From the NCBI GenBank assembly GCA_963761615.1, contig CAVXGU010000004.1:223537-287536 (forward strand): DNA of 64,000 bases, in the 5' to 3' direction. This document shows, piece after piece, positions 48,382-61,525 of the stretch. How positions within the stretch are numbered: position 1 is the first letter of the stretch; every line of letters starts with the position of its first letter. The notes beneath the pieces are model-generated. The model ran no database searches. It was not told where the DNA came from and worked only from the letters and a program-made list of their open reading frames with translations. The translations under genes were made by a program, and so were the position numbers. This DNA is from an uncultured Acidobacteriota bacterium. Lineage in GTDB: Bacteria; Acidobacteriota; Vicinamibacteria; Vicinamibacterales; CAVVIG01.

Positions 48382-48633
48382 ATGGGGAAGCTGTTCGTGA
48401 TGTGGGTGCTGTCGCTCGCGCTGGTCGGAGCCCTGGCCGCCGCCGCGACCGCTCAGGTGACGGCGCCGGCGCCGGCGCAGCCGCATGTTCTCAGCGGAAA
48501 CGACATCGGCTTCAGGGTGGACGGCACCAATCGGCTCTCGGGCCGCCCGACGGGCCGGATCGTCGTCAGGCTGAACGGCCAGTGGGTCGAGCCTGCCGCC
48601 CCGGTGAAGGCGCGTCCGGCGGCTGACAGATAG
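48382..48633 (+). CDS. small secreted hypothetical protein
   Basis: 83 aa with signal peptide MGKLFVMWVLSLALVGALAAAATAQ. AAGGGGG lies upstream. Confidence 0.5.
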   Translation: MGKLFVMWVLSLALVGALAAAATAQVTAPAPAQPHVLSGNDIGFRVDGTNRLSGRPTGRIVVRLNGQWVEPAAPVKARPAADR

Positions 48634-48791: not shown

Positions 48792-49973
48792 TCATGGACG
48801 CCGTCGAGCGTCGGCCTCTCTCCGGATCGATTGCCGGTATCGCCGGTACCGCCACCATGCCTGCCGCAGTGCATGCGCCCGCCTGGCCCGGCCGGCGGCC
48901 GCGGCCCAGGTGGCCGGCCGGCTCGCGCGCCACCAGAGAGCCGTTGCGACGTACCGCAGGCGGCTCGACGACCTGTCGAGGAGCAGCAGCGTGGTGCCAG
49001 CTTTCGTCAGGAAGTCGAGATCGAACAGCCCTTCCGTCGAGCTGAAGAGACGGTGTCTCGCGAGGGCCTCGACCCGCCGAGCGCCGGCGTCGCGCGGCCC
49101 GCGCTCCAGGAAGAAGGGAGGGACCGGCACGTCCAGGGCACGCGTGAGCGCGCCGAGCGGCGCCCAGAACGCCCGAGGCGCCCCCATGGCAGCGCTCCAC
49201 GGCAGCAGACGCGACCAGTCGAAGGCTGGTTCGCCTCGGAGAACGGCGAGCAGATCCCACGCCGTCTTCAGTCCGAAGGAGAAGAACGACGCGGAGGCAT
49301 GCACCATCGAGTGAAAGAGCAACGCCTGCGGTCCGGGCACCCCGAAGTCATCCGACGTGGCGACGGGACGTACGTCCTCGAGCAGACTGGCCTCCGGCAG
49401 ACCCCAGAACGCCGGCATCATCCGCGTGTGGATCTCGATGGCGGCGCCGTGGAACGCGATCGGCTCCAGATGGTGCGGCGCGCTGGGGCCCGCGTTCTCC
49501 GGTCCCTCGAATCCGCGCGCGAGGAGTCGGCTCCGCAGGACCGGCGCCAGATCGGGCTCGACGAGAACGTCGACATCCGACGTCGCCCGCGCAACGGCGC
49601 GTGCGGGCGCGCGCATGAGGAACGCGGAACCCTTGAGCAGCACGCCGCGTCCCCCGAGCTCCCGCAGGGCCGAGCCGACCTGCGCAATCGCGTCTCTCTG
49701 CGCGCGTTCGCGCACGAGATCGAACATCGCTCGTCGCGACAGGGTGTCGAGAAACGTCTCCGGAACGGACCGCCTCAGCACCGGCGCATTGAGGATGCCG
49801 GCAAGCGGCCGCGCCAGACCGCTTCCGCACAGACACTCGCCGAGGCGCTCCCAGTCCTGCCCGGCGCGGTCGAACGCAATCGCGGCCTGGGAATCGATCT
49901 CGAGATCCGGGTCGGATGCGAGGCGAACGAACCACCGGCACGCCGCGATCCAGGCGGCGTCCTCCGCGTTCAC
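48792..49973 (-). CDS. uncharacterised nucleotidyltransferase family protein (PF14907-like)
   Basis: 393 aa. VLLKGSAF...SDVDVLVEPD pattern of the nucleotidyltransferase fold. ATGA overlap with the upstream GT2 gene. Confidence 0.7.
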   Translation of the reverse strand: MNAEDAAWIAACRWFVRLASDPDLEIDSQAAIAFDRAGQDWERLGECLCGSGLARPLAGILNAPVLRRSVPETFLDTLSRRAMFDLVRERAQRDAIAQVGSALRELGGRGVLLKGSAFLMRAPARAVARATSDVDVLVEPDLAPVLRSRLLARGFEGPENAGPSAPHHLEPIAFHGAAIEIHTRMMPAFWGLPEASLLEDVRPVATSDDFGVPGPQALLFHSMVHASASFFSFGLKTAWDLLAVLRGEPAFDWSRLLPWSAAMGAPRAFWAPLGALTRALDVPVPPFFLERGPRDAGARRVEALARHRLFSSTEGLFDLDFLTKAGTTLLLLDRSSSRLRYVATALWWRASRPATWAAAAGRARRAHALRQAWWRYRRYRQSIRREADARRRP

Positions 49974-51109
49974 GACCGCGCCTGCGAGAGGTCGTCGGCC
50001 TCTGCGTCCGCCGCGGCGGGCCGGCCCGCCCGCGCCAGCGCGAGACGTTGCTTGACGACGTGAGCCGGGTTTCCCGGGTCGAGCGCGCAGGCCCGTGCGT
50101 AGTAGCGGGCGCTCTCGTCGTAGCGCCGCAGTTTGAACAGGCAGAGCGCGACGGCTTCGCTGGCGGCGGCGCCGAAAATCCGGACGTCGTAGGCGACCCC
50201 GTCGTCCGAGCAGTACGTCTCGGCGTCCGTGTTCGCGAGATCTTCGAGAACGGCGAGCGCCTCGGCGTATCGTCCGGCGTCGAGCAACCGCCGCCCCTGG
50301 AGCCAGCGGAAGAGACAGTCGTCTGGAAACCGCTCCAGCGCCTCGTCGAGGAGCGCGGGGTCAGCGGGGTTCGATCCGACCAGCAGCGACCCGTAGGGCA
50401 GGGCGTCGAGCGGACTCCGCACCCGGGCGGCCCGCACGATGTCGGTCGCCCGCCGCCACGCCGCCGTCGCGCCCGCGTGGTCCCCCAGGCCTTCGAGCAC
50501 CTGTCCGAGGTGATTCCACGAATAGACGTGGCCTGGATCCTGCAACAGCCGCGCCCGGAGCAGGGGGGCGTTCCGCGCGTGCTTGCGTGCCTGATCCCCG
50601 TCGTACCCGTAGTGGTCGAGTGCGAGGTCGGACGCGCCGATGCGCGTTCCGTCCTCGCGCATCACGGCGTGGATGTCGGGGAGCATCGTTTCGTGGATGA
50701 CGTTTCGGAAGCGGATGCGCGCGTCGTTCCGGAACAGGCGGCACTCGCGGTACTGGGTGAAGCCGGTTCGACACCGGAACTTCACGGTCGCAGCGACGAG
50801 GGCGGAGTCGTCCAGCGTCGCCGCCAGCGCGTCCCGGCTCAGAGGCCGCGCGCGCTCGTCGGCATCGATGTAGAGAATCCAGTCGCCGCGTGCGTACGAC
50901 AGGGCGGCGTTTCTGGCGGCAGAGAAATCGCCGTGCCAGGCCTCGTGAACGACGCGCGCTCCGAACCGGGCGGCGATCTGCGGGCTCTCGTCCGTTGACC
51001 CTGTGTCGACGACGACGATCTCGTCGACGAGTCCGTCGAGCGAGGCGAGGCAAGAAGGCAGCGTCGACGCCTCGTCGCGGACGATGAGGGTCGCGGACAA
51101 AGCCGCCAA
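49970..51109 (-). CDS. GT2 glycosyltransferase with a TPR-like C-terminal domain
   Basis: 379 aa. LSATLIVRDEASTLPSCLASL...EIVVVDTGSTD, DxD (YIDADE), and a helical-repeat C-terminus. TTG start inferred. Confidence 0.85.
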   Translation of the reverse strand: MAALSATLIVRDEASTLPSCLASLDGLVDEIVVVDTGSTDESPQIAARFGARVVHEAWHGDFSAARNAALSYARGDWILYIDADERARPLSRDALAATLDDSALVAATVKFRCRTGFTQYRECRLFRNDARIRFRNVIHETMLPDIHAVMREDGTRIGASDLALDHYGYDGDQARKHARNAPLLRARLLQDPGHVYSWNHLGQVLEGLGDHAGATAAWRRATDIVRAARVRSPLDALPYGSLLVGSNPADPALLDEALERFPDDCLFRWLQGRRLLDAGRYAEALAVLEDLANTDAETYCSDDGVAYDVRIFGAAASEAVALCLFKLRRYDESARYYARACALDPGNPAHVVKQRLALARAGRPAAADAEADDLSQARS

Positions 51110-51121
51110 CGACGTGGGGGG

Positions 51122-51322
51122 CTAGCCCGGGGAAGAAGGGAGTGTGATGTTGGACGCGGCCTGTGCGTGCACGTTGTACGCGGACACGCCCTTCATCGAG
51201 AAGGACATGACCAGCGGAGCCCCGAACGCCGTTCCGGCGACGAGCGCCTTCAGGAACGCGCGCTTGTTCGGGTCGACATGTTCCAGGGCTTTGTCGAGAC
51301 CGTCCTTGTCACTGGTCGCCAT
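51122..51322 (-). CDS. 66-aa small protein, candidate substrate/precursor peptide of the cluster
   Basis: ATG at 51320..51322 is preceded by GGGGGAG at 6 nt. GC3 is high throughout. Sequence: MATSDKDGLDKALEHVDPNKRAFLKALVAGTAFGAPLVMSFSMKGVSAYNVHAQAASNITLPSSPG. It starts 14 nt inside the end of the kinase gene and ends 12 nt before the GT2 gene. Confidence 0.5.
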   Translation of the reverse strand: MATSDKDGLDKALEHVDPNKRAFLKALVAGTAFGAPLVMSFSMKGVSAYNVHAQAASNITLPSSPG

Positions 51323-52188
51323 GTTCGCTCCCCCGCTGAAGCCGATTGCCGAGGACACATTCACGCACACAAGCGACAGCGGAGTCAAGGTCCCCGACGG
51401 TGATTTCGTACGCGGTGGCATGCCCGACGAGGGTTCCGACGTCACGAGCCCAGGCCCCGTGGCCCGCGTCCGGCGGCGCCGACTGCGCCAGCACGCGCTG
51501 AAGGGTCAGGGGTGTTGGGCACGGCTGGACGCGCGTCGGCCCGCGATGGTGCGGAATCAGGCAGAGGACCACGTCGACCGAACCGGGGGTGATTCGCCAC
51601 CGGAGGTCGAGCTCGGCAGGGTCGAATGCAAGCACGTGAAATCCCCCCGGCCAATCGGCCTCCGGTCCCTCCAACAGACGAGGCGCGAGCGCACCCACCT
51701 GCGGCACCAGTCGCAGCGTGCGGCGGCGGAATCCCGAATCGCCGGGGGTAGGCCACGGCCTCGCCGTCGCGCAGGAGGACCATCTCGTCGCCTTCGACGC
51801 CGCAGCCCTCGAAGAGCAGTCGCGTCATCAGCGTCGTCTTGCCCGCGCCCCGGTCGCCCACGACGAGGAACCGGCGGCCGTGCCACGTCCCGCAGCCCGC
51901 GTGAACCTTGGTGTAATCGGCGAGCGCATCGAGCGCGAGCTCGTGCAGCCGGCGGTTGACGAAGTCGACGGCCTGATCGACGTCGGGGAAGATCTCGGGC
52001 GCGCAGCCGTCTTCGCTCACCCGCCACCGGTCGCCGCCGCCGAGCGCGTGGAACGAGTGCCGGCGCGTCACCGGATGATCCTGTACCGCGCTCGGCATCA
52101 GCCGATCCAGACGCTCGACGAACGACGCGTCGTCCGTCGATACGAGGAACCCGCACGCCACGAGCTGGATCGAGCGCTCGAGTGTCAT
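51309..52188 (-). pseudogene. HPr-kinase-related protein (P-loop intact), apparent 1-nt frame disruption near 51728
   Basis: The N-terminal 153 aa (frame of 52188) contains GDRGAGKTTLMTRLL and ends ...AVAYPRRFGI. The continuation RRRTLRLVPQVGALAPRLLEG...VDVVLCLIPHH... is in the frame of ORF 51309..51707 and parallels the paralogue at 56176..57057. Confidence 0.75.
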
Positions 52189-52209
52189 CGGTTGGAGGCG
52201 CCTGGACCA

Positions 52210-52479
52210 TCAGAGCGGACGGATGAGACCCTCGTCGCGGAGTTTGGTGAGGCAGCTCTCGACTTCGTCGGTCGGTGCCGTGGTGAGGTCGTACGCGTTC
52301 TTCAGGGCGTCCACGATCGCGCCGGCGGCCAGGTGGCCGTCGCACATTTCGAACACCAGGACCGCGGTGCGATTGAGGTAGTGGACGCGGTCGGTCTCCT
52401 GTTGATAGACGATGTAACCGTCCGGCAGGTCGTTGACCTCGAGCCCGTCGGCTCTCTTCGGCACCCAGTTCCAGTCCAT
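52210..52479 (-). CDS. PqqD-family protein (RRE-like peptide chaperone)
   Basis: 89 aa. DGYIVYQQETDRVHYLNRTAVLVFEMCDG......IVDAL...YD......EVESCLTKLRDEGLI matches the PqqD pattern. ATG verified at 52477..52479. Confidence 0.8.
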   Translation of the reverse strand: MDWNWVPKRADGLEVNDLPDGYIVYQQETDRVHYLNRTAVLVFEMCDGHLAAGAIVDALKNAYDLTTAPTDEVESCLTKLRDEGLIRPL

Positions 52480-52513
52480 CGTGCGCTCCGGTCGCTGATT
52501 GTGGAATCGGTGG

Positions 52514-53824
52514 TCACACCAAGTCAACGGGGGGACCGGGCCGTTGCGGAGCTCCGCGCAGGTGTTCACGCACCAGGGCCGCCACCCGTCCGGCCACGAC
52601 GGAGGCGTCGTACGCCGAAGCCACCAGCGCAGCCGCCTCCCGCTGGATGCGCCGCGCGAGATCCGGCTCGCGCACGATCCGACAGCACGCGTCGGCGATC
52701 TCCGCGGGCCCCTCCGCCATCAGGAGATGCCGTCCCGCGACCACGTCGAGGCCTTCGGCGCCGAGAGACGTGGAAACCACCGGCACGCCACTGGCGAAGG
52801 CCTCGAGGATCTTGAGGCGTGTGCCGCCGCCCGCACGAAGGGGCACAACGGCGGCGTGGGCGCGCCGGTAGAACGGCGCCACGTCCTCGACGTCGGGGTG
52901 GACGGCGACGCCGTCGAGCCGGCCGAGCTCGAGCACGGTCGGGTCGGGCCGGGCGCCGATCAGGTCCACGTACGCGGCGGTGCCGAGACGCGCCCGAACG
53001 GCGGGAAGGATTTCTCGGCAGAGAGTGGTCGCCGCGTCGACGTTCGGGAAGTAGCCGAGCGAGCCGACGAAGACCAGGTGGACGCACCCGTCGGGTGTCC
53101 CCCCGAGGGCGCGGGCATCACGGGACACGCGAACGCCGTTCGGAACGACGTGCACCGACGGGTGACCCGAACGCGCCGCGACCGCCTCCCGGTCGCGCGC
53201 CGAACAGGTGAAGAGCGTATCGAACGACGACACCCACCTCGACTCGAGGATCCGGTACTTGTCGGCCTCCGCGGCCTCTGCGTCCGACGCGGCGATGTGC
53301 CCGAGCTCCGCGTGCCGCGCGGCGAGACGCCGCCGCGTCGAGACTTCGTCGTCGTCCAGATCGAGCAGGGCCAGGCGCGGAGAGGAGCAGGCCGCGACGA
53401 ACGGGGCGAGGTACAGCCGCATGACGAGCACGACGTCGAACGCCGGTCGGTCGGCGAACAGGTGCCGCGCCTCCTCGACATGGTCGCCGGCCGCCCGCGC
53501 GAGCGCCGGCAACAGGAACAGCTCTCGCAGAGTCCGAGAGTCTTCCCTGGGCGCGTCAGCGCCCGCCCGCGGATCGCCTCGGCCCGGTCTCGGCGGGAGG
53601 CACATCCGCTCGACGGTGCGGTCGACCAGGGCACGCGGCCACTGGTCCGGTGCCGGTCCGGACACCGGAACGACCATCAGCGTGACATCGCACTCCTGCG
53701 CCAGCGCCTCGAGGAGCACCGCGGAGCGCATGGCCAGCCCGTTGCCGGAATCGGCCGGTGTCGTGGGCGCAACGAAGAGGGCGCGGGGGCGTCGGCTCGA
53801 TCCCGCGGTCACGGCGTCGATCAT
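52514..53824 (-). CDS. GT-B glycosyltransferase (GT4-like)
   Basis: 436 aa. C-terminal half has GGTRLKILEAFASGVPVVST..GAEGL, the EX7E-region pattern. It abuts the upstream gene with no gap. Confidence 0.85.
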   Translation of the reverse strand: MIDAVTAGSSRRPRALFVAPTTPADSGNGLAMRSAVLLEALAQECDVTLMVVPVSGPAPDQWPRALVDRTVERMCLPPRPGRGDPRAGADAPREDSRTLRELFLLPALARAAGDHVEEARHLFADRPAFDVVLVMRLYLAPFVAACSSPRLALLDLDDDEVSTRRRLAARHAELGHIAASDAEAAEADKYRILESRWVSSFDTLFTCSARDREAVAARSGHPSVHVVPNGVRVSRDARALGGTPDGCVHLVFVGSLGYFPNVDAATTLCREILPAVRARLGTAAYVDLIGARPDPTVLELGRLDGVAVHPDVEDVAPFYRRAHAAVVPLRAGGGTRLKILEAFASGVPVVSTSLGAEGLDVVAGRHLLMAEGPAEIADACCRIVREPDLARRIQREAAALVASAYDASVVAGRVAALVREHLRGAPQRPGPPVDLV

Positions 53825-54586
53825 TCAGTCTTCCGCGTGACGGATCTCGAGATTGGGGAGACCCCAGCACTGATAGCCCATGTCATGGGCCATGATGCCG
53901 AGCCCTTCGGTATCCAGCTCTCCCACGACTTCGGTGACCCACGGGTTGGGATCGCGCACCAGGGGGCTGCGCCCGCCGTAGAGGTACGGCGGGAAGATCA
54001 GGCCGTCCCGGTGCGCGTCCGCGCGCACCAGCAGCATCGTGCCGCCGACCGCGTCCAGTCGTACGAGGTCGGGGCCTCCCCGCAGGTCCTCCATGTGGAC
54101 GCGGCCGTGGTCCCGCCACGCGTTCAGATCGAACGTCGGGCCGCCATACGTCCGCACACAGTGGGGATGGACGATGTCGCGCCCGACCGACAGCAGGCGC
54201 TCGATGATGCCTGGCGGGTACTCGACGACATCCGCGTCCAGCCAGAGCACCCAGTCCTCGTCGTCGAGGGCTCGCGAGAGCAGATGGTTCCGGCTCCTCG
54301 AGATCACCGCGCGGCGCGGAATCTGGATGATGGACGCCCAGCGCGGCAGGCCTCGCGGGATCTGAAAGCCGAAGTCGCGCTTCCAGAGGCGCGCCCGCCG
54401 GTACCGGCGCTGCAGGTCGGGCATTCGCGACTGCAGGGCGGCAAACGTGTCGTCCTGGCTGTCGCCCTCGAGAAAGCCGAGGGACAGACGGTCCGGCGGA
54501 TACGTCAGCCGCGCGAGCGAGTCGAAGTACGTGTCGAGACGCCTGGCGGCGTCCTTGATCACCGTGAGGACGACTACCGTATCCAT
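53825..54586 (-). CDS. GT-A glycosyltransferase resembling the fungal Mnn9/Anp1/Van1 (GT62) family
   Basis: 253 aa. VLTVIKDAARRLDTYFDSLARLTYPPDRLSLGFLEGDSQDDT...RR...SRSRNHLL...L.DEDWVLWLDADVVEYPPGII...DIV.P...FDLNAW parallels the Mnn9/Anp1 core as I recall it. No TM segment. Confidence 0.65.
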   Translation of the reverse strand: MDTVVVLTVIKDAARRLDTYFDSLARLTYPPDRLSLGFLEGDSQDDTFAALQSRMPDLQRRYRRARLWKRDFGFQIPRGLPRWASIIQIPRRAVISRSRNHLLSRALDDEDWVLWLDADVVEYPPGIIERLLSVGRDIVHPHCVRTYGGPTFDLNAWRDHGRVHMEDLRGGPDLVRLDAVGGTMLLVRADAHRDGLIFPPYLYGGRSPLVRDPNPWVTEVVGELDTEGLGIMAHDMGYQCWGLPNLEIRHAED

Positions 54587-54658
54587 GGAGAGGCCTCGAT
54601 CGTCGGCGGGCTATTGTAGCGGCGCGCGAGCCCGCCCTGTGCGAAGATCCCGCGCATC

Positions 54659-56167
54659 GTGACGCTGCCGTCGCTGACCCAGGCACTCGCCGATCGTCTT
54701 CGGTCGCCCCGGCCCTACCCCGCCGAGCGATACACGGGGCGGGGCGTCGTCACCTGCGCCGGGGGGAGCCGCTACTTCACGTGCGCCTGGGTGCTCATCT
54801 GGGTCCTGCGGCGCGTCCTGCACTCGAGTCTGCCGATTCAGGTCTGGCACGCCGGCCGGAGCGAAATGAGCGAGGGCATGCAGCTCATCCTGGAAGAGGA
54901 GGGCGTGGAAGTCGTCGACGCGGACATCGTCGTCGCCGATCGGCCCGGGCGCGTCTGTGGGGGGTGGCCGCTCAAGCCGTACGCCATCGCGCAAAGCCGG
55001 TTCCGCGAGGTGCTCTTTCTCGACGCCGACGCCGTCCCGCTGGCCGATCCGGAGGCGGCGTTCGAATGGGAGGCCTATCGCCGCGGCGGACTTCTGCTGT
55101 GGCCCGACGTCCTCGACATCACGAGGGAGAATCCCGTGTGGAGCGCGCTTGGCCTCGAGGCGGCCGACACGATCAGCGCGGAGTCGAGCGTTCTCGCGAT
55201 CGACAAGGCCAGGGCGTGGGACGTGCTCGACGTCGCCGTCCTGCTCAACGAACACTGGGAGGAGCTCTACGAGCTGATCTATGGCGACAAGGACTCGTAT
55301 CTCCTGGCGGGGCGCCTGCTCGGGCGCCCCGTCGCGCTCGTCGCGTCACGGCCATTTCAGCTCGGCGATGATCTCGTCCAGCGCGACGAGCGCGGCGAGC
55401 CCTTCGTCCACCACCGCACGGGGTCGAAGTGGAATCTCTCCGGCGCCAATCAGCCGGTTGCCGATCCCGAGATCGACGCGGCGTGTCAGGTGGCCCTCGC
55501 GGAGCTCCGGCGCCGGTGGACGGGCGCCGTGTTCCATGCTCCCGCCCGCTCGGCGACCGCACGGGCGGTGGAGCGCGAGCTGATCGACGCCAGACGCTTC
55601 CAGTACTCGGTCTCCGGTCAGGCCCGAACCCTGGAGCTGCTGTCGGGGGGGCGCATCGGCGAAGGCCGGGGCCCCTGCGAACAGCACTGGGCCGTCGTCG
55701 GCGATCGCGAGCCTGCGCTCCAGCTGTTCTCGGACGTCCGCCTCACCGTCGGGCTGAGGCCCGATCCCGACGGGACGTGGCGCGGCGGCTCGGTGTGCGG
55801 GGATCCGTTCGACGCCAGGCTCGTCGCGGCGAGCGCGCCGACGACGTGGCCGCCGGAGCCGCGCGCGCGGAGTGCCGCGGATCACGTCGCGCCGCTTCTG
55901 GATCCGAGCCTGTTCGCGACCGGCTTCGACCCGGCCCTCGCGAGCGAGATTCGCGGGACGCTCACGCTGCTGAACCGCGTGTTCGACGATGTGGCGGAGG
56001 CGGTGGCGGGCTGGCTGCAGGCGCACCCGCCTGCGGAGCCCTGGCGGCGCGAGGTCGAAGCCATGCTGCCGCCGCTCGTGGAGGCCCGGCGGACGCGGCT
56101 CGTGCGGACGGGCGGCAGCGCGGGATCCACCGCGCTGGACTCGGTGCGCTACCGGAGGAACTCCTAG
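54659..56167 (+). CDS. GT-A glycosyltransferase resembling the Mnn1/Mnt (GT71, Mannosyl_trans3) family, with a roughly 230-aa uncharacterised C-terminal extension
   Basis: GTG start. GVVTCAGGSRYFTCAWVLIWVLRRV..SSLPIQVWHAG..E...WPLKPYAI..S.F.EVLFLDADAVPL.DPE..F....Y...G.LLWPD parallels the Mnn1-family core as I recall it. No TM segment. Confidence 0.6.
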   Translation: MTLPSLTQALADRLRSPRPYPAERYTGRGVVTCAGGSRYFTCAWVLIWVLRRVLHSSLPIQVWHAGRSEMSEGMQLILEEEGVEVVDADIVVADRPGRVCGGWPLKPYAIAQSRFREVLFLDADAVPLADPEAAFEWEAYRRGGLLLWPDVLDITRENPVWSALGLEAADTISAESSVLAIDKARAWDVLDVAVLLNEHWEELYELIYGDKDSYLLAGRLLGRPVALVASRPFQLGDDLVQRDERGEPFVHHRTGSKWNLSGANQPVADPEIDAACQVALAELRRRWTGAVFHAPARSATARAVERELIDARRFQYSVSGQARTLELLSGGRIGEGRGPCEQHWAVVGDREPALQLFSDVRLTVGLRPDPDGTWRGGSVCGDPFDARLVAASAPTTWPPEPRARSAADHVAPLLDPSLFATGFDPALASEIRGTLTLLNRVFDDVAEAVAGWLQAHPPAEPWRREVEAMLPPLVEARRTRLVRTGGSAGSTALDSVRYRRNS

Positions 56168-56175
56168 CAGGGCAG

Positions 56176-57057
56176 ATGCCGTACGAAGTGCTCGCCCGCA
56201 GCTCCTGCCGGCGGATCGTCTTCACGACGGGCGACCCGGCCGTCTGGTCCGCGGTGCGATACCTGGAATGTGACCCGGAGGTGGAGGCCCGCGGTCCGGT
56301 CGGCCTGGTGCGCGTCGGACTGGACCGCCACCGTGGCCGCCATCGCATCGCGCAGCCCGATCGCGAGCCTCGCGAGGAGCTGACGCTCCGCGAGGTCGTT
56401 CGGTATCTGGACGGCCGGCTGTTCGAGCAGGCGATGGAGGATTACCCCGGGGCGCCGGTGATCCGCGCGGCCTGCCTGCGCCGCCAGGGGCGCCGGATGC
56501 TGCTCCTCGGTCCCAACCGTGTCGGCACGACCGCGCTGGTGCTGCGCCTCATGCTGGCGGGGGCCGCGGTCGAGGGCGACGCGCACGTGTTCGCGCTCGC
56601 CGGCGGGGTGATTGCGCGACCGCGCGGTCTTCGGGTGAACGCCGGGGACGTTCCGCGCGTGCCCGAGATCGCCAGGGAGGTGCTGTCTGCGCCGTTCCAC
56701 GAAGACGGGCGCGGCGGACGGGCCTACAACCTGGATCCGCGGACCCTCGGGCGGCCATGGGAGATCCGGCACGGACCGGTGGATGTCGTCGTCCTGCTGA
56801 GGAGCAACCTTGGCGGCAGGTCGTCGATCCGTCCGATCGGACCGACGACCGTCGTTCGCGAGGCGATGTCCGCGTGCGTCATGCCGCGCGCCGGCCGCGG
56901 CGCCGCCGTGAGCGCGCTCGTCGCCGCCCTTCGGTCGGCGCGGGGCTTCGACCTCTCGTACGGCGACGACGAGGGTGCGCGCCGTTGCATCGAGGCGGCG
57001 TGCGACGGTCTGTTGGCCGCAACGGCGAGCCGCTATTTCCCCGTCAGCTCCCGGTAG
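56176..57057 (+). CDS. HPr-kinase-related protein paralogue with a degenerate P-loop
   Basis: 293 aa and collinear with the protein at 51309..52188. The P-loop position reads GPNRVGTTAL, with no Lys. ATG verified at 56176. Confidence 0.7.
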   Translation: MPYEVLARSSCRRIVFTTGDPAVWSAVRYLECDPEVEARGPVGLVRVGLDRHRGRHRIAQPDREPREELTLREVVRYLDGRLFEQAMEDYPGAPVIRAACLRRQGRRMLLLGPNRVGTTALVLRLMLAGAAVEGDAHVFALAGGVIARPRGLRVNAGDVPRVPEIAREVLSAPFHEDGRGGRAYNLDPRTLGRPWEIRHGPVDVVVLLRSNLGGRSSIRPIGPTTVVREAMSACVMPRAGRGAAVSALVAALRSARGFDLSYGDDEGARRCIEAACDGLLAATASRYFPVSSR

Positions 57058-58060: not shown

Positions 58061-60559
58061 GTGTGGATCATCGCGTGGTTCGAACGGCTCTGGCAGGACG
58101 TCCGCTACGGCAGCCGCGTCCTGGCGCGGAGCCCGGGATTCACCCTGGTGGCGATGCTGTCGCTCGCCACGGGCATCGGCGCCAACGTCGCCGCCTTCAG
58201 CTGGGCCGATGCCCTCCTGCTTCGCCCGCTGCCCGTGGCCCGGCCGAACGAGATCGTCACCGTCGGGGACACGGTCTCGGTGGAAGGCTTCACCAGCCTC
58301 GCCGCGTCGTACCGCGAGTACGAGGATCTGCGCGATCGCGCGAAGAGCTTCGAGGGGCTGACCGCCTCGAGCGGCATCACGGCGGGCGTCGCGACGGATC
58401 CGGCCGCGCTGCCGAAGCTGAAGCTCGGCCTGCTCGTCAGCGGCAACTTCTTTTCCCTGATGGGCGTCCAGCCGATGCTCGGCCGCGCGTTCAGGGCGGA
58501 GGAAGACCAGGTGCCCGACCGTGACGCGGTCGTCGTGCTGGGCTATGACTTCTGGCAGCGCGAGCTCGGCGGCGATCCCGCCGTGCTGGGGCGCCGCATT
58601 CGATTGAACGGCATCCCCTTCACGGTCATCGGCATCGTCCCGGCGAGCTTCACCGGCATCAATCAGTTCGTCCGCAACGACTTCTACGCCCCGATCATGA
58701 TGTGGCCCGCGCTGTCGGGGAATCCCAAGGTGCACCCGCTCGAGGATCGGAGCCTGCAGGAGGTGACGATCAAGGGACGCCTCGCGCCGGGGGTCGGCCT
58801 GACGCAGGCGCAGGCGGAACTGTCGGCGATCGGCGCCGATCTGGCGCGCGAGTACCCGCAGACGAACGAGAACCGCGTCCTCGCCGTGCGCACGGAGCTG
58901 CAGAGCCGGGTCGCCCAGTCACCGCCCGACGCGATGCTCATCGTGATGCTGAGCACGCTGGCGCTGGCCGTGCTGTTCGTCGCCTGTGCGAACGTGGCGG
59001 GACTGCTCACGAGCCGCGCGCCCGCGCGTGCCAGAGAAATCGCGCTCCGCCTGGCGATCGGCGCGGGACGCGTGCGGCTGGTGCGCCAGCTGATCACCGA
59101 GAGCCTCCTGATTGCCGTCGGCGGGGGCGTCCTGGGCGTCGCCGTCGGGTACGCGGGGGTCCGCGTGTTTCAGCACATCCAGATCCCGTCGGACCTGCCC
59201 GTGTCGCTCGACTTTCAGCTCGACCGGCGCGCGCTCGTGTTCAGCCTGATCGTCGCCGCCGCGAGCGCGTTGCTCTTCGGCCTCGTCCCTGCGCTGCAGA
59301 CGACGCGGCTCGATCTCAACACGGCGATGAAGACCGGCGACGCGGACATGGGCGGCTCGCAGCGCCGCCTCGGCCGGCGCCTCCTCGTGGGCGCGCAGGT
59401 GGCCGTGTCGGTGATCCTGCTGGTGGTGGCCACCTTCATGTATCGCAGCTTCATCCGGCAGGTGGGATCGGGACCCGGCTACCGCACGGATCACGTGCTG
59501 ATGATGGGGCTCGACACGAGCCTCGTTCACTACTCCGACGTGGACAGCCGGGTGTTCTTCGAGCGCCTGGGCGACAGGGCGCGCGAGGTGCCGGGCGTCC
59601 GGTTGGCCGCGCTGTCCTCGACGGTCCCGATGTCGACCGACAGCGTCGGTTCGACGTCCATCGTGCCGGAGGGACACCAGCTGCCGACGGGGCAGGACAG
59701 CATCGGCGTGCTCGACGCCATCGTCGACGAGCGGTACTTCGACGTGATGGACATTCCGATCGTCGAGGGGCGCGCGTTTACCGAGCGGGATCGCGACGGC
59801 ACGCCGCTCGTGGCCGTCGTGAACGAGAGCCTGGCGCGGAAGTACTGGCCCGACGCCAGCGCGCTCGGCAAGCGGTTCCAGCTGGCCGCCGCGCCGGGAC
59901 GTCCCTGGGTGCAGATCGTCGGCGTCGCGAAGGAGAGCAAGTACATCTGGCTGGCCGAGCCGCCCACCGACTTCGTGTACATGCCGTACCAACAGCACCC
60001 GCGATCGAACATGACCCTGCTGGCGCAGTCGATCGGCGACGATCCCGCCGCGCTGGCCGCGCCACTGCGCGACGTGGTGCGGGACCTGGATCGGAACCAG
60101 CCAATCTTCAACGTGCGCACGATGAGCGAGTTCTACCGCATGCGGGCGGTCAGCATCTTCGACATCGTCATCGGCACTGTCGCCGCCATGGGGCTGATGG
60201 GGCTGGGCCTCGCGATCGTCGGCATCTACGGCCTCATGTCCTATGCGGTGATGCGGCGGACGCGCGAGATCGGGATCCGAATGGCAATCGGCGCCGATCG
60301 CGGGGCGGTGCTGCGCATGGTGCTCGGGCAGGGCGCGACGCTCGCGGGCGCGGGCCTGGCCCTCGGTCTGGTCGGCGCCATCGGCGCCGGACGGGTGCTG
60401 CGCGCGATGTTTCCGGGCGGGGCGACCCGGCCCGGCACGGACCTGGTCGGTCTCGCGATCGTGGGCGTTGTGGTGCTGGCGATCACGCTGCTGGCCGCGT
60501 ACGTGCCCGCGCGCCGCGCGTCCCGCGTCGACCCGATCACGGCCCTGCGCTACGAGTAG
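58061..60559 (+). CDS. ADOP-family duplicated ABC-type (FtsX/MacB-like) permease
   Basis: 832 aa. N-terminus WQDVRYGSRVLARSPGFTLVAMLSLATGIGAN. Two FtsX-type 4-TM modules. C-terminal pattern PARRASRVDPITALRYE. Confidence 0.9.
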   Translation: MWIIAWFERLWQDVRYGSRVLARSPGFTLVAMLSLATGIGANVAAFSWADALLLRPLPVARPNEIVTVGDTVSVEGFTSLAASYREYEDLRDRAKSFEGLTASSGITAGVATDPAALPKLKLGLLVSGNFFSLMGVQPMLGRAFRAEEDQVPDRDAVVVLGYDFWQRELGGDPAVLGRRIRLNGIPFTVIGIVPASFTGINQFVRNDFYAPIMMWPALSGNPKVHPLEDRSLQEVTIKGRLAPGVGLTQAQAELSAIGADLAREYPQTNENRVLAVRTELQSRVAQSPPDAMLIVMLSTLALAVLFVACANVAGLLTSRAPARAREIALRLAIGAGRVRLVRQLITESLLIAVGGGVLGVAVGYAGVRVFQHIQIPSDLPVSLDFQLDRRALVFSLIVAAASALLFGLVPALQTTRLDLNTAMKTGDADMGGSQRRLGRRLLVGAQVAVSVILLVVATFMYRSFIRQVGSGPGYRTDHVLMMGLDTSLVHYSDVDSRVFFERLGDRAREVPGVRLAALSSTVPMSTDSVGSTSIVPEGHQLPTGQDSIGVLDAIVDERYFDVMDIPIVEGRAFTERDRDGTPLVAVVNESLARKYWPDASALGKRFQLAAAPGRPWVQIVGVAKESKYIWLAEPPTDFVYMPYQQHPRSNMTLLAQSIGDDPAALAAPLRDVVRDLDRNQPIFNVRTMSEFYRMRAVSIFDIVIGTVAAMGLMGLGLAIVGIYGLMSYAVMRRTREIGIRMAIGADRGAVLRMVLGQGATLAGAGLALGLVGAIGAGRVLRAMFPGGATRPGTDLVGLAIVGVVVLAITLLAAYVPARRASRVDPITALRYE

Positions 60560-60646: not shown

Positions 60647-61525
60647 GTGCCCTCCGATCGCGCCGATCGAACGAACGCCGCGCGCGTGCGGAGGCTGCGC
60701 TCGCGCTCGTGGCGTCCCGCCGTGCTGGCCGTGGGCGTCCTGCTCGTCGCCTCGATCGGCGCCGCGCAGTTCCGGCGAGGAGGATTCGGTCGCTTCGGCC
60801 CGTCCGTCGACTTCGCGAAGCCGGATGACTTCGACGGCAGCTTCCAGTTCTGCCGCATCGTGTTTCGCAACGCGCCGGACGGCGACGGCGCCGGGTGGGA
60901 AGTCGACTGGCCGCGCGCCGACGAGAACCTGTCGACCCGGCTGTCGGAGCTGACGACGACGTCGGTCGGCAAGGACGCCGACGGCGAGACCAAGCACCTG
61001 CTGGTGCGACTCACCGACCCGGAGCTCTATCACTGCCCGTTCATCATGATGACCGAGCCGGGCGGCGCCTACTTCGACGATCAGGAGGCCGCGCACCTTC
61101 GGGACTACGTGCTGAAGGGCGGGTTCCTCTGGGCGGACGATTTCTGGGGCGAGTACGCGTGGAAGTTCTGGTCGGCGCAGATCGCCAAGGCCCTGCCGCC
61201 CGACAAGTACCCCATCGTCGACGTGCCGCTCGACGATCCCCTCTTCCACATGGTCCTCGACGTGCCGCGCGTTCCGCAGATTCCCGGTATCCGGTACTGG
61301 ATGTACTCCGAGGGCGGGACCTCCGAGCGCGGCGCCGACAGCGCGGTGCCGCACGTCCGCGCGATCCGTGACGAGCGCGGGCGCATTCTCGTGCTGATGA
61401 CCCACAACACCGACTTCGGCGATGCGTTCGAGGAAGAGGCGACGAACCACCAGTACTTCCTGGACTTCTCGATCGAAGGGTATGCGTTCGGGGTCGACGC
61501 GCTCGTCTATGCGATGACGCACTGA
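60647..61525 (+). CDS. DUF4159 domain protein
   Basis: 292 aa. F.FCRI.F..........W..D.P.AD.NL..RL.ELT......L.DPEL..CPFI.M.EPG...F...EA..LR.Y..KGGFLWADDFWG matches the DUF4159 pattern. Confidence 0.8.
   Translation: MPSDRADRTNAARVRRLRSRSWRPAVLAVGVLLVASIGAAQFRRGGFGRFGPSVDFAKPDDFDGSFQFCRIVFRNAPDGDGAGWEVDWPRADENLSTRLSELTTTSVGKDADGETKHLLVRLTDPELYHCPFIMMTEPGGAYFDDQEAAHLRDYVLKGGFLWADDFWGEYAWKFWSAQIAKALPPDKYPIVDVPLDDPLFHMVLDVPRVPQIPGIRYWMYSEGGTSERGADSAVPHVRAIRDERGRILVLMTHNTDFGDAFEEEATNHQYFLDFSIEGYAFGVDALVYAMTH

Follow-up and report, generated by a model that had tools for sequence, protein, structure and literature searches.

Soluble bacterial relatives of the fungal mannosyltransferase families GT62 and GT71 as candidate glycan-extending enzymes of a conserved, probable peptide-glycosylation gene cluster

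The 64,000-nucleotide stretch of DNA analysed here (the window) belongs to an uncultured Acidobacteriota bacterium (assembly GCA_963761615.1, contig CAVXGU010000004.1, positions 223,537 to 287,536), and all positions below are those of the window. It contains a gene cluster at 48792–57057 in which members of two glycosyltransferase (GT) families, GT62 and GT71, are encoded back to back. Both are textbook fungal Golgi families. In this cluster they are soluble proteins accompanied by further glycosyltransferases, a small precursor peptide, kinase-like proteins and a recognition element (RRE) for peptides made by the ribosome and modified after translation (RiPPs), and they probably act in extending a glycan on a peptide. 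G+C content is about 70% across the whole window, and the cluster region is compositionally ordinary (local GC 0.70). The features central to this proposal are as follows:

53825–54586, minus strand: GT62-like (Anp1/Mnn9 family) glycosyltransferase, 253 aa, ATG start (Pfam Anp1)
54659–56167, plus strand: GT71-like (Mnn1/Mnt family) protein, whole gene, 502 aa, GTG start
54659–55519, plus strand: GT-A catalytic domain of the GT71-like protein (Pfam Mannosyl_trans3; profile and fold of MNT2 7xjv)
55520–56167, plus strand: C-terminal extension of the GT71-like protein (AlphaFold2 models)
54587–54658, no strand: divergent intergenic spacer, 72 bp (direct sequence reading)

Each of the two open reading frames (ORFs) is the longest possible in its own frame, and the genes diverge from the spacer as a preliminary description of this DNA had stated, in a layout that is not conserved across genomes. 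The spacer contains an 8-bp inverted repeat, GGCGGGCT (54605–54612) and AGCCCGCC (54629–54636) separated by N16, which may serve as operator or form a 5' stem-loop. Neither a sigma-70-like promoter nor a terminator was found by a scan of these 72 bp.

The smaller protein matched Pfam Anp1 (PF03452) with E=1.9e-45 and 155.8 bits (gathering cutoff 28.8), and the second-best family, Glycos_transf_2, reached just 21 bits. When all PDB sequences were searched, its sole relative was yeast Mnn9 (3zf8, E=7e-19, in two stretches), to which it is about 30% identical. In this alignment, the DxD motif WLDADVVEYPP matches and a C-terminal His is aligned (RHAE vs YHIE); the corresponding residues D117, D119 (D117-A-D119) and H250 are invariant in 33 homologues. 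Homologues number at least 2129 at E<=1e-5, nearly all of about 253 aa, and all of those listed carry PF03452. No membrane anchor was detected in the protein, whose maximal 19-residue Kyte-Doolittle mean is 0.76 and whose ORF is not extendable. Family precedent is α-1,6/α-1,2-mannosyltransferase activity, which would make GDP-mannose the expected donor.

The larger protein matched Pfam Mannosyl_trans3 (PF11051) with E=6.1e-25 and 88.6 bits (gathering cutoff 22) and no other family, and the sequence match is restricted to the N-terminal half of the model (positions 1–135 of 273). Its profile retrieved yeast MNT2 (7xjv) alone from the PDB (E=8.8e-6). A Foldseek search of the PDB with the AlphaFold model, built with 118 homologues (pLDDT 93.1, pTM 0.89), likewise ranked MNT2 7xjv first (E=6.5e-11, about 311 columns), ahead of glycogenin, GlyE and UGGT, retaining GT-A enzymes of families GT8 and GT24 (1e-7). 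The DxD motif D122-A-D124, W148-P-D150 and H252-R253 are invariant among homologues, at least 215 of which are full-length proteins of about 505 aa with the same N-terminus. Here too no membrane anchor was found: the maximal 19-residue Kyte-Doolittle mean is 1.26, and the N-terminus is not extendable. Precedent within the family is α-1,2/α-1,3-mannosyltransferase activity, which would again make GDP-mannose the expected donor. The preliminary description had assigned both proteins to these families by eye and had described them as lacking transmembrane segments. The core motifs that it quoted are present, and the profile searches gave significant matches to PF03452 and PF11051 instead of confining the proteins to ordinary GT2-type or other families. 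NCBIfam holds no family for either protein, so there is no curated bacterial name, and some homologues are already auto-annotated as 'Anp1' or 'alpha-1,3-mannosyltransferase family protein'.

The GT71-like protein was also said to carry a C-terminal extension of roughly 230 aa with unknown fold. The extension is real, measures about 215–230 aa and is conserved across homologues, whereas its fold could be described: residues 288–502 modelled alone (pLDDT 85.6) form a helix, an eight-stranded β-barrel (~313–390) and a helical bundle (~407–484). Fold matches were all weak and confined to inhibitor barrels of the Omp19/AprI type (7mhw, E=1.1e-3; 6iy4, TM 0.61). A profile of the extension matched 368 representative proteins, in which the β-barrel repeats two to five times in large proteins with Methyltransf_24, Methyltransf_21, FkbM, TylF, GT8, GDSL, AMP-binding or GT71 domains. 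Tailoring enzymes thus share the barrel as a mobile module, and multidomain proteins with repeated barrels include P0255, P0258, P0263, P0283 and P0285. Docking to a common (glyco)peptide or to a partner protein is the most plausible putative role. In addition, P0340 (696 aa) is a natural single-chain fusion of the order GT71-barrel-GT62, which gives independent evidence that both enzymes act together.

The remaining genes of the cluster are listed below:

52514–53824, minus strand: GT4 glycosyltransferase, 436 aa (Glyco_trans_1_4, 3e-21)
52210–52569, minus strand: PqqD-family RiPP recognition element (Pfam PqqD, 38.4 bits)
51309–52188, minus strand: HprK-like kinase paralogue 1, frame broken (tblastn with the kinase of related locus L001)
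51122–51322, minus strand: precursor peptide MATSDKDGLDKALEHVDPNKRAFLKALVAGTAFGAPLVMSFSMKGVSAYNVHAQAASNITLPSSPG, 66 aa (Shine-Dalgarno; family membership)
49970–51109, minus strand: GT2 glycosyltransferase with TPR repeats, GT2-TPR (Glycos_transf_2, 2.7e-20, plus TPR)
48792–49973, minus strand: NTP_transf_5 (PsmN/LppN-type) nucleotidyltransferase-fold protein (Pfam PF14907, 6.1e-24)
56176–57057, plus strand: HprK-like paralogue 2, full length (39–47% identity to kinases of related clusters)

Neighbouring genes abut or overlap by 0–4 nt, which suggests two divergent operons: the GT4 start codon abuts the GT62-like stop codon, and the NTP_transf_5 and GT2-TPR genes overlap by 4 nt. On the plus strand, paralogue 2 starts 9 nt past the GT71-like stop codon. 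The window flanks encode Ig-like, PEGA, PAS, esterase, MBL, ADOP-permease and DUF4159 proteins, and neither a lasso cyclase nor a signal-peptidase homologue nor an exporter was found among them. The ADOP-family duplicated permease (58061–60559, plus strand, 838 bits), of a family typical of Acidobacteria, and the DUF4159 protein (60647–61525, plus strand) flank the cluster. The ORF at 48382–48633 (plus strand), which separates the esterase gene from the cluster, encodes 83 aa that begin with a clear signal peptide; it gave no family match and was not found in related loci.

One genome per species was scanned, yielding 80 loci with a GT71-like gene, and co-occurrence was counted within 10 kb of that gene in the 52 species loci flanked by 6 kb or more on either side, using per-family hidden Markov models (HMMs) iterated on the loci. 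Single-linkage clustering of all six-frame ORFs was dropped, as it merged everything into one giant cluster via antisense ORFs in high-GC DNA; the per-family HMMs and a stricter clustering took its place. The counts for the 52 loci are as follows:

GT62-like: 50/52
GT4: 49/52
PqqD-type RRE: 51/52
HprK-like kinase: 52/52
GT2-TPR: 51/52
Precursor family: 51/52
NTP_transf_5: 29/52
Flanking MBL and β-lactamase-family genes of the window: 0/52

The pairing of GT62-like with GT71-like genes goes far beyond chance. The MBL protein, the β-lactamase-family esterase and the ADOP permease were ruled out as cluster members, since they co-occur in none of the 52 loci. Gene order is shuffled between loci and the gene set is retained; for instance, the GT62-like gene is divergent from and upstream of the GT71-like gene in many loci and on the same strand downstream of it in many others. 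The divergent 72-bp layout is therefore local, and the gene set is the conserved unit. No priming phosphoglycosyltransferase, lipid-carrier gene, Wzx/Wzy, flippase, polymerase, chain-length regulator or ABC exporter occurs in this conserved set.

The loci belong mostly to Alphaproteobacteria (Bradyrhizobium, Xanthobacteraceae, Devosia, Mesorhizobium, Reyranella, Acetobacteraceae), with others in Acidobacteriota, Burkholderiales, one deltaproteobacterium and one planctomycete, and homologues overall span Alphaproteobacteria, Acidobacteriota, Binatota, Burkholderiales, Deltaproteobacteria and Planctomycetota. On one alphaproteobacterial contig of 5 Mb, whose GT71-like protein is only 52% identical, Anp1, Mannosyl_trans3, GT4, PqqD, HprK/ScmC-like, small-protein, GT2+TPR and NTP_transf_5 genes all recur. 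Among species genomes, the nearest relatives of the cluster come from Alphaproteobacteria, with 59% identity, and the acidobacterial loci reach only 40–43%, a hint of transfer between phyla. The linkage is looser on the GT62 side, where GT62-like genes also occur in related clusters without GT71. Sister clusters with PqqD, GT4 and precursors and with accessory GT10, GT8-like, methyltransferase and epimerase genes contain the closest GT62 relatives (80–82% identical) and include a Binataceae locus; some of these clusters are without GT71. Among 11 well-flanked metagenome contigs with a GT62-like gene, GT71 was found in 7, GT4 in 8, GT2-TPR in 8 and PqqD in 5. Accessory sugar-tailoring genes also accompany the related loci, including GT10 fucosyltransferase-like genes (16 loci), GT90 (9), GT8-like genes, FkbM/TylF methyltransferases and a sulfotransferase (e.g., L068:144-1127, L056:8084-9094, L016:8062-8910, L069:1067-2077 and L083:11703-15185). 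The GT10, GT90 and GT8-like families are best known from eukaryotic secretory-pathway glycosylation. No transporter was found among these accessory genes.

The 66-aa precursor gene is preceded by a GGGGGAG Shine-Dalgarno sequence, and the source annotation also calls it as a gene (P0454). Its product has a leader resembling a twin-arginine translocation (Tat) signal with KRAFLK and an AxA motif, then S-N-I-T and a short S/T/G-rich tail (..AQAASNITLPSSPG). An iterated HMM found 96 related precursor ORFs in the related loci, frequently as multiple tandem copies, and the leader profile matched 291 proteins in a collection of 5.8 billion, all unnamed and without Pfam domains. The conserved N-terminal 45–50 residues read ..VDxx[KR]RxxLxKLxxGxAFxxPxVxSFxMDG... 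Of 112 unique precursors, 103 have an Asn about 13 residues past the SFxM motif; in the same set the residue before it is S, A or G in 78%, and S/T follows at +2 in 51%, at +1 in 25% and at +3 in 19%. A strict N-x-S/T sequon, present in about half of the precursors, was accordingly rejected as a universal feature. Beyond the Asn the sequence is hypervariable, with minimal tails such as ..AYAGNG and ..LAGNSY, and 'SN' is retained in the close homologues of the window peptide, in which the C-terminus varies freely. Tails are at most 36 aa long in 70 of 108 unique precursors, some ending 3–4 residues past AxA, and longer than 36 aa in 32 of 108; long precursors contain repeated S-N-x-T/S.

Among the 112 unique leaders, [KR]R occurs in 100 (RR in 58), a hydrophobic core in 96 and AxA in 91, with all three in 82 (73%). 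The leader has the three-part form of a twin-arginine or Sec signal peptide, a probable though not universal reading. One precursor carries a C-terminal PEP-CTERM sorting signal (19.6 bits against a cutoff of 16), and this member must be exported. Ser is the last residue in 33% of precursors against 14% in composition. A C-terminal Ser as a general, paeninodin-like kinase target was rejected, as it is not universal, is absent from the window peptide and falls in the region that close homologues vary.

The family is diverse in its tails. Several loci (L001:13959-14375, L003, L005, L008, L010 and L086:13265-13702) encode precursors with a C-terminal Peptidase_S74 domain, an endosialidase intramolecular chaperone, which begins at the self-cleavage motif S/DRRLK (cleavage after Ser) directly past the Asn-containing core; after autocleavage there the peptide would end in Ser. 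In phage tail fibres the domain serves for trimerisation as well. The same leader stands before pentapeptide-repeat, His-rich, Thr/Pro-rich (ending GHPAKS) and GPIGSNL-repeat tails, the last ending in PEP-CTERM (loci L059:15985-16665, L050, L032, L061, L083:16908-17420; L026, L037; L013-L018; L035:15100-15990). About 8 tandem precursor genes with one leader and differing tails occur at L036:13892-17275, and L072, L053, L052 and L008 have 3 or 4 precursor genes each.

With regard to the partner enzymes, the window PqqD protein exceeds the Pfam PqqD cutoff of 23.4 bits and scores 29.7 bits against TIGR04353, below the cutoff of 35. The true start of its gene is probably at 52479, giving 89 aa, the length of the L001 orthologue. 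The GT4 protein scores 130 bits against TIGR03087 (stp1-like), below cutoff. The closest solved relatives of the GT2-TPR protein are GmaR (2.3e-25), SunS (3.5e-13) and ThuS (~1e-13). GmaR is the Listeria flagellin O-GlcNAc transferase, and SunS and ThuS are glycocin S/O-glycosyltransferases. Since all three glycosylate ribosomal polypeptides in the cytoplasm, the GT2-TPR protein is the natural candidate for attachment of a first sugar.

The kinase-like proteins show a distant relationship to HprK-related kinases. In paralogue 1 the P-loop GDRGAGKTT is intact and the reading frame is broken between ~51636 and ~51741; tblastn with the L001 kinase aligned residues 14–92 in one frame and 125–213 in another, and matches to TIGR04355/04352 were weak. 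The break is either a real pseudogene mutation or an assembly indel. Paralogue 2, a probable pseudokinase, has a degenerate Walker A motif, GPNRVGTT, with Lys changed to Thr (relatives: GxxGxGK[ST]), and no Pfam or NCBIfam match. A single kinase gene is present in most related clusters. The earlier claim that the two enzymes are paired with kinase and RRE genes thus holds in so far as a PqqD RRE, kinase-like genes and the 66-aa peptide are present, and it needs to be qualified for the kinases, one being frameshifted and the other without its P-loop lysine.

Almost all cluster kinases elsewhere retain the P-loop GK[S/T]. The Lys is lost (..RT..) in L047, L062, L070 and L075, where the kinases lie at ~6.2–7.1 kb or 12.8–13.8 kb with the precursors just downstream. 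The precursor tails of these four loci have few or no Ser/Thr (..AYAGNG, ..AYAGNV, ..AFAGNTYA), and their GT62, GT71, GT4 and GT2-TPR genes are all retained. The covariation of P-loop loss with Ser/Thr-poor tails suggests that the kinase acts on tail Ser/Thr, and the retention of the glycosyltransferases suggests that glycosylation is independent of phosphorylation, in which case the conserved Asn would be the most economical acceptor. There is precedent for such chemistry. In paeninodin, pseudomycoidin and the linear polyphosphorylated peptides (LPPs), HprK-like kinases phosphorylate precursor Ser (PMC6993621, PMC13381572), PsmN is needed for hexose addition to phospho-Ser (PMC6993621), and the combination of kinase, NTP-transferase and RRE has been described on linear or lasso peptides (PMC13381572, PMC6993621).

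Taken together, these data favour, at a probability of about 0.68, a mechanism in which the soluble GT62 and GT71 members are glycan-extending tailoring enzymes of a conserved RRE-dependent peptide-glycosylation cluster. The PqqD-type RRE would hold the 66-aa precursor, or larger family members elsewhere, via the conserved leader, and the GT2-TPR protein would attach the first sugar at or beside the near-invariant Asn just past the AxA motif. Further sugars, most likely α-mannose from GDP-mannose, would be added by the GT4, GT62-like and GT71-like enzymes; all three families are retaining, which leads one to expect α-linked sugars. In the GT71-like protein, the C-terminal domain with its β-barrel and helices would dock the common substrate or a partner. 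Ser/Thr, where available, may receive phosphate or phospho-hexose from the HprK-like kinase and NTP_transf_5, in the manner known from paeninodin, pseudomycoidin and the LPPs. The finished glycopeptide or glycoprotein would leave by a general pathway, which the three-part twin-arginine form of the leader makes probable (Tat would fit pre-glycosylated cargo), and signal peptidase would remove the leader at AxA. The order of these steps, the identity of the sugars, the linkage to Asn and the export are what we infer; the family membership, the solubility, the gene linkage, the fusion protein and the precursor family with its features are what the analysis shows.

Several observations weigh against this mechanism. 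Known GT2-TPR relatives form O- or S-linkages, not N-linkages, and only around half of the precursors contain the N-x-S/T sequon. The hydrophobic core is missing from about a quarter of the leaders (e.g., the ..RYEPPKVISFPIDG.. subfamily), so the signal-peptide reading is not universal. A dedicated leader peptidase or exporter is absent from the conserved genes and the window flanks, and genes for GDP-mannose supply, the donor that GT62 and GT71 membership suggests, are absent from the cluster. NTP_transf_5 is near only 29 of the 52 loci, and given one frameshifted and one degenerate kinase the phosphorylation arm may be dead in the window, unless an assembly indel is responsible. Moreover, GT62-like genes occur in metagenome contigs with no detectable RRE or precursor (PqqD in 5 of the 11 well-flanked contigs).

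The strongest rival would be a dedicated protein-glycosylation system, in which the N-terminal region serves as export signal and glycosylation tag on secreted proteins (pentapeptide-repeat, His-rich, Thr/Pro-rich or PEP-CTERM) and the short members, including the 66-mer, are degenerate or minimal substrates, with GT62 and GT71 still extending the glycan. The 32 of 108 unique precursors with tails longer than 36 aa, with their folded or repeat domains and repeated S-N-x-T/S, the PEP-CTERM member and the lack of a dedicated leader protease and exporter all speak for it. On the other hand, most precursors (70/108) have tails of at most 36 aa, some reaching only 3–4 residues past AxA, and tandem short precursors (up to 8, in L036) together with a discrete RRE are hallmarks of RiPP clusters. 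This variant, which differs from the proposed mechanism mainly in the purpose of the product and not in the roles of the two glycosyltransferases, is judged rather unlikely, and it is the only rival left with appreciable weight. An ordinary exopolysaccharide, lipopolysaccharide or capsule locus, where GT62, GT71, GT4 and GT2 would assemble a polymer rich in mannose, lipid-carried or free, and the small ORF, PqqD and kinase would be unrelated neighbours, is less probable still. At least four glycosyltransferases in a row are typical of such loci, the GT4 protein resembles the PEP-CTERM/exopolysaccharide-associated stp1 (at its sub-cutoff 130 bits), and some GT62-like genes lie in GT-rich contigs where an RRE was undetected. 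However, RRE, kinase and precursor stay with the glycosyltransferases in 51–52 of 52 genomes despite the shuffled gene order, the conserved set lacks the priming, flippase, polymerase, chain-length and ABC export functions of such a pathway, all enzymes are soluble, and the closest GT2-TPR relatives glycosylate proteins or peptides. The initial proposal, in which a defined peptide acceptor is glycosylated in the cytosol and no wall mannan is synthesised, is strongly supported by the conserved neighbourhood, the precursor family and the lack of lipid-carrier, Wzx/Wzy and ABC export genes.

Two further explanations carry very little weight. Self-priming or small-molecule glycosylation, with the GT71-like and GT62-like enzymes making a cytoplasmic oligomannoside or glycosylating a metabolite and the peptide acting as regulator or chaperone target, could draw on the Foldseek matches that follow MNT2 (glycogenin, GlyE, UGGT) and on the lack of an exporter in the cluster. 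Yet GlyE and UGGT are themselves protein glycosyltransferases, and the tight linkage to an RRE and to a precursor with hypervariable core and conserved Asn points to a peptide acceptor, so that this explanation is very improbable. Scarcely credible is a recent horizontal acquisition of fungal Golgi enzymes that are now decaying or functionless. Thousands of bacterial homologues of uniform length in several phyla with invariant catalytic residues, a local GC (0.70) the same as in the rest of the window, and an identity to Mnn9 of only ~30% with the membrane stem gone all contradict it, although one kinase gene of the window is frameshifted and the families are classically fungal, PF03452 having been reported in fungi only by a domain survey that included 52 bacterial genomes (PMC5225481).

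If the proposed glycan-extending role is carried further, the clusters could represent a widespread, undescribed class of ribosomally primed glycoconjugates of soil bacteria, though this is put forward only tentatively and is itself doubtful. A twin-arginine signal would double as RiPP leader, an Asn only a few residues past the signal-peptidase site would be N-glycosylated in the cytoplasm, the glycan would be elaborated by soluble GT62/GT71 enzymes (with GT10, GT90 and GT8 as accessories) and the product, perhaps as short as G-N(glycan)-G, would exit by Tat. If true, the bacterial enzymes would be a candidate ancestral pool for the fungal outer-chain mannan machinery.

Full-text searches of the literature found no description of the cluster, the precursor family, the function of bacterial GT62/GT71 proteins or Tat-signal RiPP leaders; one CAZyme table lists a bacterial GT71, uncommented. 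What is new here is the combination of known glycosyltransferase families in soluble bacterial guise with an RRE-dependent glycopeptide-type cluster. Families thought to be essentially fungal occur as soluble enzymes in thousands of bacterial sequences of several phyla, and the relation of the bacterial and fungal branches becomes a question to ask. The cluster offers a defined, genetically encoded acceptor for enzymes whose yeast acceptors are hard to handle, and points to a new type of peptide-linked glycan, with a possible Asn linkage and cytoplasmic synthesis. A connection between RiPP leaders and Tat signal peptides, open to testing, is raised as well, and the barrel module that many tailoring enzymes carry may be a new domain for substrate docking.

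Compared with yeast mannan polymerase (Mnn9/Van1/Anp1, GT62, 3zf8), the GT62-like protein belongs to the same Pfam family and shares the GT-A domain with conserved DxD and C-terminal His. It differs in lacking the type II anchor and stem, being a minimal 253-aa domain in which about 60 Mnn9 residues are missing (chain positions 168–228), and it is bacterial, cytoplasmic and encoded in an RRE/kinase/precursor cluster, whereas Mnn9 works in a Golgi complex. The likeness of the GT71-like protein to the yeast α-mannosyltransferases Mnn1/Mnn2/Mnn5/Mnt2-4 (GT71, 7xjv) lies in the 89-bit Pfam match and in the DxD (LDAD), WPD and HHR motifs conserved across bacterial homologues. The membrane anchor is again absent, and the ~215-aa extension is missing from the yeast enzymes and common to other bacterial tailoring enzymes.

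Among phosphopeptide systems, LPP and paeninodin/pseudomycoidin tailoring share with the cluster the trio of discrete RRE, HprK-like kinase and NTP transferase, and glycosyltransferase-rich surroundings have likewise been noted for LPP clusters (PMC13381572). The LPP core set comprises an SpI-like peptidase, RRE, HprK-like kinase, NTP transferase and MsbA-like pump, with the leader YxxPxVLxHQxIxFETxxS (PMC13381572). In contrast, the present cluster has neither an SpI-like peptidase nor an MsbA-type exporter, and its leader reads PxVxSFxMDG. It further differs from LPP and lasso tailoring in having at least four dedicated glycosyltransferases in the conserved core, in its occurrence in Gram-negative soil phyla instead of Bacillota, and in a kinase that is dispensable or degenerate in some subfamilies. 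The macrolactam synthetase (C) and leader protease (B2) of lasso peptides of the paeninodin type are absent from the cluster, its flanks and L001. Nor does it correspond to the HPr-rel-A system (TIGR04352/TIGR04353), as scores stay below the cutoffs for PqqD (29.7 vs 35), the window kinase (17.5–19.4 vs 200) and the L001 kinase (51 vs 200).

The glycocin enzymes SunS/ThuS and GmaR are homologous to the GT2-TPR protein, and all act or would act in the cytoplasm by direct glycosylation of a ribosomal peptide or protein. The SunS model TIGR04195 gave 60 bits for the window protein and 76.5 bits for that of L001 against a cutoff of 350, indicating homology and not equivalence. Unlike glycocins, the precursors have no Cys-rich helical hairpin, the candidate acceptor is Asn instead of Cys/Ser, and the first sugar is apparently extended by three more glycosyltransferases. 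With HMW1C/NGT (GT41) the cluster would share the concept of cytoplasmic Asn modification in an N-x-S/T context before export; the enzymes are of an unrelated family with no GT41 gene in the cluster, the sequon is partly kept and the N-linkage is presumptive. The RRE may have a functional analogy to the Tat proofreading chaperones TorD/DmsD/NapD, as a small cytoplasmic protein that would stay on a twin-arginine-type leader until maturation; there is no relationship in sequence or fold, the window protein being a PqqD-type RRE. As in RRE-dependent RiPP systems, the cluster combines a discrete PqqD-fold RRE beside modifying enzymes with a short precursor of conserved leader and variable core.

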